Origin: Escherichia coli
Lineage (GTDB): Bacteria > Pseudomonadota > Gammaproteobacteria > Enterobacterales > Enterobacteriaceae
DNA length: 2,326 nt
Direction: 5' to 3' (one strand)
Assembly: GCF_003334355.1 (NCBI RefSeq)
Contig: NZ_QOWP01000076.1
Shown: piece by piece, positions 123-2,326 of the stretch
Layout: each line of letters begins with the position of its first letter
Position numbering within the stretch: the stretch's first letter is position 1
Program-made: the position numbers and the translations under genes
The notes under the pieces: model-generated
Databases searched by the model: none
Told to the model about the DNA's origin: nothing
Seen by the model: the letters and a program-made list of their open reading frames with translations, nothing else

Positions 123-2326
123 GGTTAAGCGACTAAGCGTACACGGTGGATGCCCTGGCAGTCAGAGGCGATGAAGGACGTGCTAATCTGCGATAAGCGT
201 CGGTAAGGTGATATGAACCGTTATAACCGGCGATTTCCGAATGGGGAAACCCAGTGTGTTTCGACACACTATCATTAACTGAATCCATAGGTTAATGAGG
301 CGAACCGGGGGAACTGAAACATCTAAGTACCCCGAGGAAAAGAAATCAACCGAGATTCCCCCAGTAGCGGCGAGCGAACGGGGAGCAGCCCAGAGCCTGA
401 ATCAGTGTGTGTGTTAGTGGAAGCGTCTGGAAAGGCGCGCGATACAGGGTGACAGCCCCGTACACAAAAATGCACATGCTGTGAGCTCGATGAGTAGGGC
501 GGGACACGTGGTATCCTGTCTGAATATGGGGGGACCATCCTCCAAGGCTAAATACTCCTGACTGACCGATAGTGAACCAGTACCGTGAGGGAAAGGCGAA
601 AAGAACCCCGGCGAGGGGAGTGAAAAAGAACCTGAAACCGTGTACGTACAAGCAGTGGGAGCACGCTTAGGCGTGTGACTGCGTACCTTTTGTATAATGG
701 GTCAGCGACTTATATTCTGTAGCAAGGTTAACCGAATAGGGGAGCCGAAGGGAAACCGAGTCTTAACTGGGCGTTAAGTTGCAGGGTATAGACCCGAAAC
801 CCGGTGATCTAGCCATGGGCAGGTTGAAGGTTGGGTAACACTAACTGGAGGACCGAACCGACTAATGTTGAAAAATTAGCGGATGACTTGTGGCTGGGGG
901 TGAAAGGCCAATCAAACCGGGAGATAGCTGGTTCTCCCCGAAAGCTATTTAGGTAGCGCCTCGTGAATTCATCTCCGGGGGTAGAGCACTGTTTCGGCAA
1001 GGGGGTCATCCCGACTTACCAACCCGATGCAAACTGCGAATACCGGAGAATGTTATCACGGGAGACACACGGCGGGTGCTAACGTCCGTCGTGAAGAGGG
1101 AAACAACCCAGACCGCCAGCTAAGGTCCCAAAGTCATGGTTAAGTGGGAAACGATGTGGGAAGGCCCAGACAGCCAGGATGTTGGCTTAGAAGCAGCCAT
1201 CATTTAAAGAAAGCGTAATAGCTCACTGGTCGAGTCGGCCTGCGCGGAAGATGTAACGGGGCTAAACCATGCACCGAAGCTGCGGCAGCGACGCTTATGC
1301 GTTGTTGGGTAGGGGAGCGTTCTGTAAGCCTGTGAAGGTGTGCTGTGAGGCATGCTGGAGGTATCAGAAGTGCGAATGCTGACATAAGTAACGATAAAGC
1401 GGGTGAAAAGCCCGCTCGCCGGAAGACCAAGGGTTCCTGTCCAACGTTAATCGGGGCAGGGTGAGTCGACCCCTAAGGCGAGGCCGAAAGGCGTAGTCGA
1501 TGGGAAACAGGTTAATATTCCTGTACTTGGTGTTACTGCGAAGGGGGGACGGAGAAGGCTATGTTGGCCGGGCGACGGTTGTCCCGGTTTAAGCGTGTAG
1601 GCTGGTTTTCCAGGCAAATCCGGAAAATCAAGGCTGAGGCGTGATGACGAAGCACTACGGTGCTGAAGCAACAAATGCCCTGCTTCCAGGAAAAGCCTCT
1701 AAGCATCAGGTAACATCAAATCGTACCCCAAACCGACACAGGTGGTCAGGTAGAGAATACCAAGGCGCTTGAGAGAACTCGGGTGAAGGAACTAGGCAAA
1801 ATGGTGCCGTAACTTCGGGAGAAGGCACGCTGATATGTAGGTGAAGTCCCTCGCGGATGGAGCTGAAATCAGTCGAAGATACCAGCTGGCTGCAACTGTT
1901 TATTAAAAACACAGCACTGTGCAAACACGAAAGTGGACGTATACGGTGTGACGCCTGCCCGGTGCCGGAAGGTTAATTGATGGGGTTAGCGGTAACGCGA
2001 AGCTCTTGATCGAAGCCCCGGTAAACGGCGGCCGTAACTATAACGGTCCTAAGGTAGCGAAATTCCTTGTCGGGTAAGTTCCGACCTGCACGAATGGCGT
2101 AATGATGGCCAGGCTGTCTCCACCCGAGACTCAGTGAAATTGAACTCGCTGTGAAGATGCAGTGTACCCGCGGCAAGACGGAAAGACCCCGTGAACCTTT
2201 ACTATAGCTTGACACTGAACATTGAGCCTTGATGTGTAGGATAGGTGGGAGGCTTAGAAGTGTGGACGCCAGTCTGCATGGAGCCGACCTTGAAATACCA
2301 CCCTTTAATGTTTGATGTTCTAACGT
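123..2326 (+). rRNA. rrl: 23S ribosomal RNA (large-subunit rRNA), 5' ~2,200 nt covering domains I-IV and the start of domain V; 3'-truncated by the window edge
   Basis: Begins with the canonical enterobacterial 23S 5' end GGTTAAGCGACTAAGCGTACACGGTGGATGCCCTGGCAGTCAGAGGCGATGAAGGACG. Conserved landmarks fall at the expected E. coli positions with a constant offset of +122: G745/U746/U747/G748 at 867-870, the GTPase-associated centre 1051-1108 at 1173-1230 with A1067 at 1189 and A1095 at 1217, A1618 at 1740, G1835 at 1957. Downstream the offset is +124: helix 69 GGCCGTAACTATAACGGTC at 2030-2048, U1939 at 2063, C1962 at 2086, A2030 at 2154, G2057/A2058/A2059 at 2181-2183, G2069 at 2193. The window ends at about 23S position 2202, inside the L1-stalk region. 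Confidence 0.97.

Follow-up and report, generated by a model that had tools for sequence, protein, structure and literature searches.

The window, by which we mean the whole stretch of 2,326 nucleotides that was analysed, begins 72 nt past the spacer tRNA of a ribosomal RNA operon and ends within its 23S gene (Table 1). The Rfam family StyR-44 (RF01830) spans window positions 7–115 on the plus strand with a score of 124.9 bits, which covers its model completely (positions 1–107 of 107). The bacterial large-subunit rRNA family (RF02541) follows on the same strand from 123 to 2326 with 2063.9 bits, and its alignment starts at model position 1 and is cut on the 3′ side at position 2228 of 2925. 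Positions 1900–2326 alone score 418.2 bits against RF02541, with the stalk helices in register; both this segment and the match to 123–2326 exceed the family’s curated gathering threshold of 50 bits. In megablast searches, all 5426 complete E. coli genomes contain matches to the window, at a median of 7 places per genome (range 1–24). At least 80% of the window is covered at a single place in 5425 of the 5426 genomes, and 4291 records are at least 99% identical to it. The window is the end of a spacer joined to the 5′ 76% of an ordinary E. coli-type rrl (2204 of 2906 nt, E. coli positions 1–2202), in agreement with the initial annotation, which had limited its statements to the 5′ three-quarters of the gene.

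Table 1. Features of the window, with positions counted from its first nucleotide and helix numbering as in E. coli 23S rRNA.
Feature	Position	Strand	Basis
16S-23S internal transcribed spacer, distal part	1–122	+	StyR-44; flanked by tRNA-Glu or tRNA-Ala and 23S in the nearest genomes
23S rRNA gene, positions 1–2202	123–2326	+	RF02541; K-12 rrlB alignment; cut by window end
Peptidyl-transferase central loop, 5′ strand, domain V, G2057–C2063 (GAAAGAC)	2181–2187	+	Sequence, K-12 numbering, Rfam multiloop strand
H76, 5′ strand, G2093–G2110	2217–2234	+	Rfam structure line; pair table; limits and hinge from PMC5309774
Unpaired 2111–2119 between H76 and H77, with U2111, G2112 (2236) and G2116 (2240)	2235–2243	+	Structure line, pair table; roles from PMC5309774, PMC3602588
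H77, 5′ strand, G2120–G2124; main docking site of L1 domain I	2244–2248	+	5/5 pairs with 2298–2302; PMC3602588
H78 hairpin, G2127–C2161	2251–2285	+	11/11 canonical pairs
Unpaired 2162–2173, with A2169 at 2293	2286–2297	+	Structure line, pair table; PMC5309774, PMC3602588
3′ strands of H77 (2298–2302, C2174–C2178) and H76 (2303–2320, C2179–C2196, closes the stalk)	2298–2320	+	Structure line, pair table
Linker U2197-A2198-A2199 of the H75/H76/H79 three-way junction (2321–2323), then start of H79, C2200–U2202 (2324–2326)	2321–2326	+	Rfam; PMC5309774

StyR-44 is a conserved enterobacterial spacer element that lies directly upstream of the 23S 5′ end and overlaps the region of the 23S processing stem. 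Here two bases of the window, at positions 53 and 100, are not those of K-12 rrnB.

To place the features on the E. coli scale, the window was aligned with MAFFT to K-12 rrlB (2,904 nt). Window position 123 corresponds to 23S nucleotide 1, and positions 2217, 2320 and 2326 correspond to nucleotides 2093, 2196 and 2202, respectively. A 2-nt insertion at window 1992–1993, in the tip of H68, raises the offset from 122 to 124 along the way. This tip (window 1988–1998) is 2 bases longer than that of K-12, GCGGTAACGCG versus GCGCAAGCG, and the 23S allele is 2,906 nt long; the longer tip is common to all four non-K-12 copies that we fetched. Minor-groove contacts connect H68 with H76 of the stalk (PMC5309774).

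The last ~110 nt of the window had been assigned to 23S nucleotides 2093–2202, and the alignment to K-12 rrlB returns exactly these limits. In the Rfam structure line for positions 1900–2326, H76 is an 18-bp helix whose first base is window 2217 (G2093) and whose last is window 2320 (C2196). These limits agree with the published ones, in which H76 comprises 2093–2109/2181–2196, the helix is closed by the terminal pair G2093-C2196 and the mobile part of the stalk starts with G2093 (Mohan & Noller, 2017, PMC5309774). The L1 stalk as a whole consists of H76 and the H77/H78 head that binds L1 (PMC5309774, PMC3602588), and by this definition the structure line and pair table bear out the earlier assignment of the segment to helices 76–78 and the L1-binding site. 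Window 2321–2323 (UAA) forms a single-stranded linker, and 2324–2326 (CGU) are the first 3 bases of H79. Contrary to the initial annotation, which had the window ending inside the L1 stalk, the stalk is complete: 6 more nt follow it before the end, the last 3 of them in H79.

A similar refinement applies to the peptidyl-transferase loop, which had been described as lying out of sight. This is correct for its remaining strands. The 5′ strand of the loop, by contrast, is within the window at 2181–2187, an identity that we take from established 23S rRNA knowledge, and both A2058 and A2059 are wild type. The sarcin-ricin loop and the 3′ end lie outside the window, as had been stated; coverage of the 2925-position model stops at 2228.

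We threaded the Rfam consensus structure onto the window sequence and checked each pair for canonicity. The consensus stalk, composed of an 18-bp H76, a 5-bp H77 and a 3+8-bp H78, can form on this sequence, with 32 of its 34 pairs canonical (16/18 in H76, 5/5 in H77 and 11/11 in H78). The exceptions, C2104-U2185 and U2109-U2180, are mismatches in H76, and K-12 rrlB has the same bases at these positions. G-U pairs and mismatches are typical of H76 and are the basis for its bending (PMC5309774). The conserved G2100-U2189 wobble is found at window 2224–2313. H78 is divided into a basal segment of 3 bp (window 2251–2253 with 2283–2285), an internal loop (2254–2259 opposite 2280–2282) and a distal segment of 8 bp (2260–2267 with 2272–2279) that carries the tetraloop 2268–2271.

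The 104-nt RNA corresponding to window 2217–2320, folded on its own, reaches a minimum free energy (MFE) of −34.1 kcal/mol, compared with −24.6 ± 2.9 kcal/mol for shuffled sequences (z = −3.25; none of 200 shuffles folded as well). This MFE structure holds 27 of the 34 consensus pairs, with H76 and distal H78 present and H77 absent. For the head domain we therefore set the MFE structure aside and relied on the comparative one. Such a fold would be expected to miss H77, as it is tertiary contacts and protein L1 that hold the head together. The energy computed for the consensus structure itself, −35.4 kcal/mol, was discarded as uninformative in view of its two non-canonical pairs.

The bases to which functions have been ascribed in the head, G2112, G2116 and A2169, are all in place (Table 1). 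G2112 and A2169 pair with each other and form the stacking platform for the tRNA elbow, where A2169 stacks on the G19-C56 pair of the tRNA (PMC5309774, PMC3602588). L1 clamps the 23S region 2120–2127 (PMC3602588), and in the P/E hybrid state G2116, G2141 and G2148 together with L1 build a transient bridge to S7, S11 and S13 (PMC5309774). At its foot, the stalk would be anchored by the three-way junction pairs U2197-A2225 and A2199-G2224 (PMC5309774). The window contains U2197, A2198 and A2199 but ends before it reaches G2224 and A2225, with which the pairs would form, or the 3′ strands of H79 and H75.

An 80-amino-acid open reading frame with a GTG start runs antisense within the 23S gene, on the minus strand at window 1973–2215, and stops two bases short of 2217. 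We considered it as a possible coding sequence at the stalk, since it is the only reading frame of at least 30 amino acids that overlaps window 2100–2326, and rejected it as spurious: it ends before the stalk and lies inside rRNA. It is almost certainly a chance reading frame.

The stalk matches that of E. coli K-12 rrlB (H76–78, nucleotides 2093–2196; PMC5309774) in position, length, secondary structure and named functional bases, and differs from it at one base. Over window 2217–2326, K-12 rrlB has the same base at 109 of 110 nt, the single difference being U2132A (window 2256; U in K-12, A in the window). Nucleotide 2132 is unpaired, lies in the internal loop of H78 and occupies a weakly conserved position of the Rfam model; it adjoins U2130 and G2131, both of them contacts of the N-terminus of L1 in T. 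thermophilus (PMC3602588). An exact 57-mer with A2132 occurs in 1352 of 5433 complete E. coli records, and at least 25% of the complete genomes have a copy with this base. U2132A was accordingly discarded as a candidate functional oddity, given that about a quarter of E. coli genomes carry it at an unpaired, weakly conserved position. It is a common intraspecific polymorphism and no anomaly.

The L1 stalk in the 70S-EF-G elongation complex of T. thermophilus has the same H76–78 architecture and the same G2112-A2169 platform (PMC3602588). A tertiary Watson-Crick pair 2111-2147 is possible in both; it is C-G in T. thermophilus (PMC3602588), whereas in the window it would be U-A (positions 2235 and 2271). 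This U2111-A2147 combination is consistent with covariation that keeps the tertiary pair.

Across its full length, the window has no exact match in the 5426 complete E. coli genomes; the best match is strain PSS-12, with 1 mismatch in 2326 nt. Although PSS-12 was listed at ‘100.0%’ identity, we rejected it as an exact match after direct comparison, which revealed the mismatch at window 1651. The matching copy in PSS-12 is rrlE (NZ_AP027697.1), part of an rrnE-type operon between purH and yjaB/metA, and its 2325 identical positions include the spacer, the longer H68 tip and A2132. At window 1651 it has a G in place of the window’s A, as does K-12 (G1529A). Two further differences from K-12 rrlB, C1211T and G1723A (windows 1333 and 1845), also occur in PSS-12 rrlE and are therefore ordinary allelic variation.

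A1529 is rare: an exact 57-mer containing it is present in 9 of the 5426 complete E. coli genomes, and an exact scan with this 57-mer gave 0 matches in viral contigs, species-representative genomes and JGI metagenomes. For G1529A, a private mutation, a sequencing error and an assembly consensus are all conceivable sources. The last of these can be widened into an account of the whole window in which short reads from several rrl copies were merged into a consensus or chimera, perhaps up to a contig break in the repeat, with a set of variants that belongs to no single operon. rRNA operons are classic collapse sites in draft assemblies, and here a rare base stands in a sequence that otherwise equals PSS-12 rrlE. 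In the two of the nine carriers that we examined (PK8277 rrnD and 510016 rrnG), A1529 occurs in other allele contexts, which differ from the window at 5 and 8 positions. However, one private G-to-A substitution in one operon fits these observations equally well and more simply, and we regard a composite origin as improbable. The finding on the 110-nt stalk segment is independent of the answer.

The extension downstream was made by proxy, in related complete genomes, and covered five operons (rrnB, rrnD twice, rrnE and rrnG). In all five, the 23S runs exactly 702 nt past the position of the window end, close to the roughly 700 nt that had been predicted. Past window 2326, normal 23S sequence would be expected to open with TGACCCGTAATCCGGG... 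or TGACCCGTAATCCGGGTTGCGG... and to end with ...GGCTTAACCTT. The PSS-12 rrlE 23S is full length, matching model positions 1–2925 with 2871.7 bits. Its operon has the rrnE-type order purH, 16S, tRNA-Glu, 23S, 5S, yjaB, metA, in which the 5S follows after a 94-nt spacer and a distal tRNA is absent. By contrast, EcPNK006 and PK8277, which match the window at 99.9%, are of the rrnD type, with 5S, tRNA-Thr and a second 5S; among the operons examined, only this type has the distal tRNA-Thr and second 5S. The initial annotation had allowed for a distal tRNA downstream, which thus holds for rrnD-type operons and fails for the nearest match, where the 23S is followed by 5S and no tRNA. The spacer base T at window 100 is shared with PSS-12 rrnE, whereas the examined rrnB, rrnD and rrnG copies have another base there. 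On this one base, the window’s operon may tentatively be called rrnE-type.

Two stretches of variation were noticed in the relatives downstream of the window end. In the 510016 rrnG 23S, just past that position, the H79 hairpin reads GGCCCCTAATCGGGGTT versus GACCCGTAATCCGGGTT (L005 4207, 4211, 4217). The G-to-C change appears to be compensated by the C-to-G change, by which one base pair is swapped; an A-to-G change (A-U to G-U) stands alongside, and together they would represent within-species rrl covariation. Near the 23S 3′ end, PSS-12, EcPNK006 and PK8277 share C2794T, T2796C, A2799G and G2802A relative to K-12 rrlB (L001 6918–6926 versus L003; 23S 2794–2802).

By analogy with these relatives, the 23S of the present copy would almost certainly continue normally, through ~702 nt of domains V–VI to a spacer and 5S. 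A copy broken just past window 2326 by a mobile-element insertion or a deletion, or existing as a partial rrl pseudogene or extra fragment, would make the window end a real structural variant; the 702 nt are indeed inferred from relatives of a source copy that lacks an exact match, and the range of 1–24 matching places per genome leaves room for incomplete or additional rrl pieces in some genomes, but such a break is very unlikely given 2204 nt that match functional alleles near-perfectly (one mismatch to PSS-12 rrlE), coverage of at least 80% of the window at one place in all but one of the 5426 genomes, a normal 3′ end after 702 nt in five of five related operons, and an end point 3 nt into H79 that bears no junction-like feature. 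We are highly confident that the window carries, at 2217–2320, the L1 stalk of an ordinary E. coli-type 23S rRNA, and that the gene is cut by an arbitrary window boundary.

How this stalk would work can be proposed by carrying over uL1 binding and the movement with E-site tRNA from the E. coli and T. thermophilus structures. The long, mobile H76 would be capped by a compact head of H77 and H78, to which ribosomal protein uL1 is predicted to bind. In the 50S subunit, the stalk would hinge at the U2092-G2093 linkage in the H75/H76/H79 three-way junction and bend in the G-U-rich part of H76. Together, the junction hinge and the bending of H76 permit stalk rotation of up to ~30 degrees (PMC5309774). 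The head, through its G2112-A2169 platform and L1, would then keep hold of the elbow of the deacylated tRNA from the P/E to the E/E state, until the tRNA exits. L1 is also a repressor of the L11-L1 operon and acts there by binding to an mRNA that mimics its site on the stalk.

Statements on this rrl copy reach across 23S nucleotides 1–2202, a range that takes in the L1 stalk and, of the peptidyl-transferase loop, the side with A2058 and A2059. The stalk described here is textbook ribosome anatomy that was already known, and it holds no new biology. The L1 stalk is among the best-characterised mobile elements of the ribosome, and the stalk in this window is that of K-12 with one common polymorphism.
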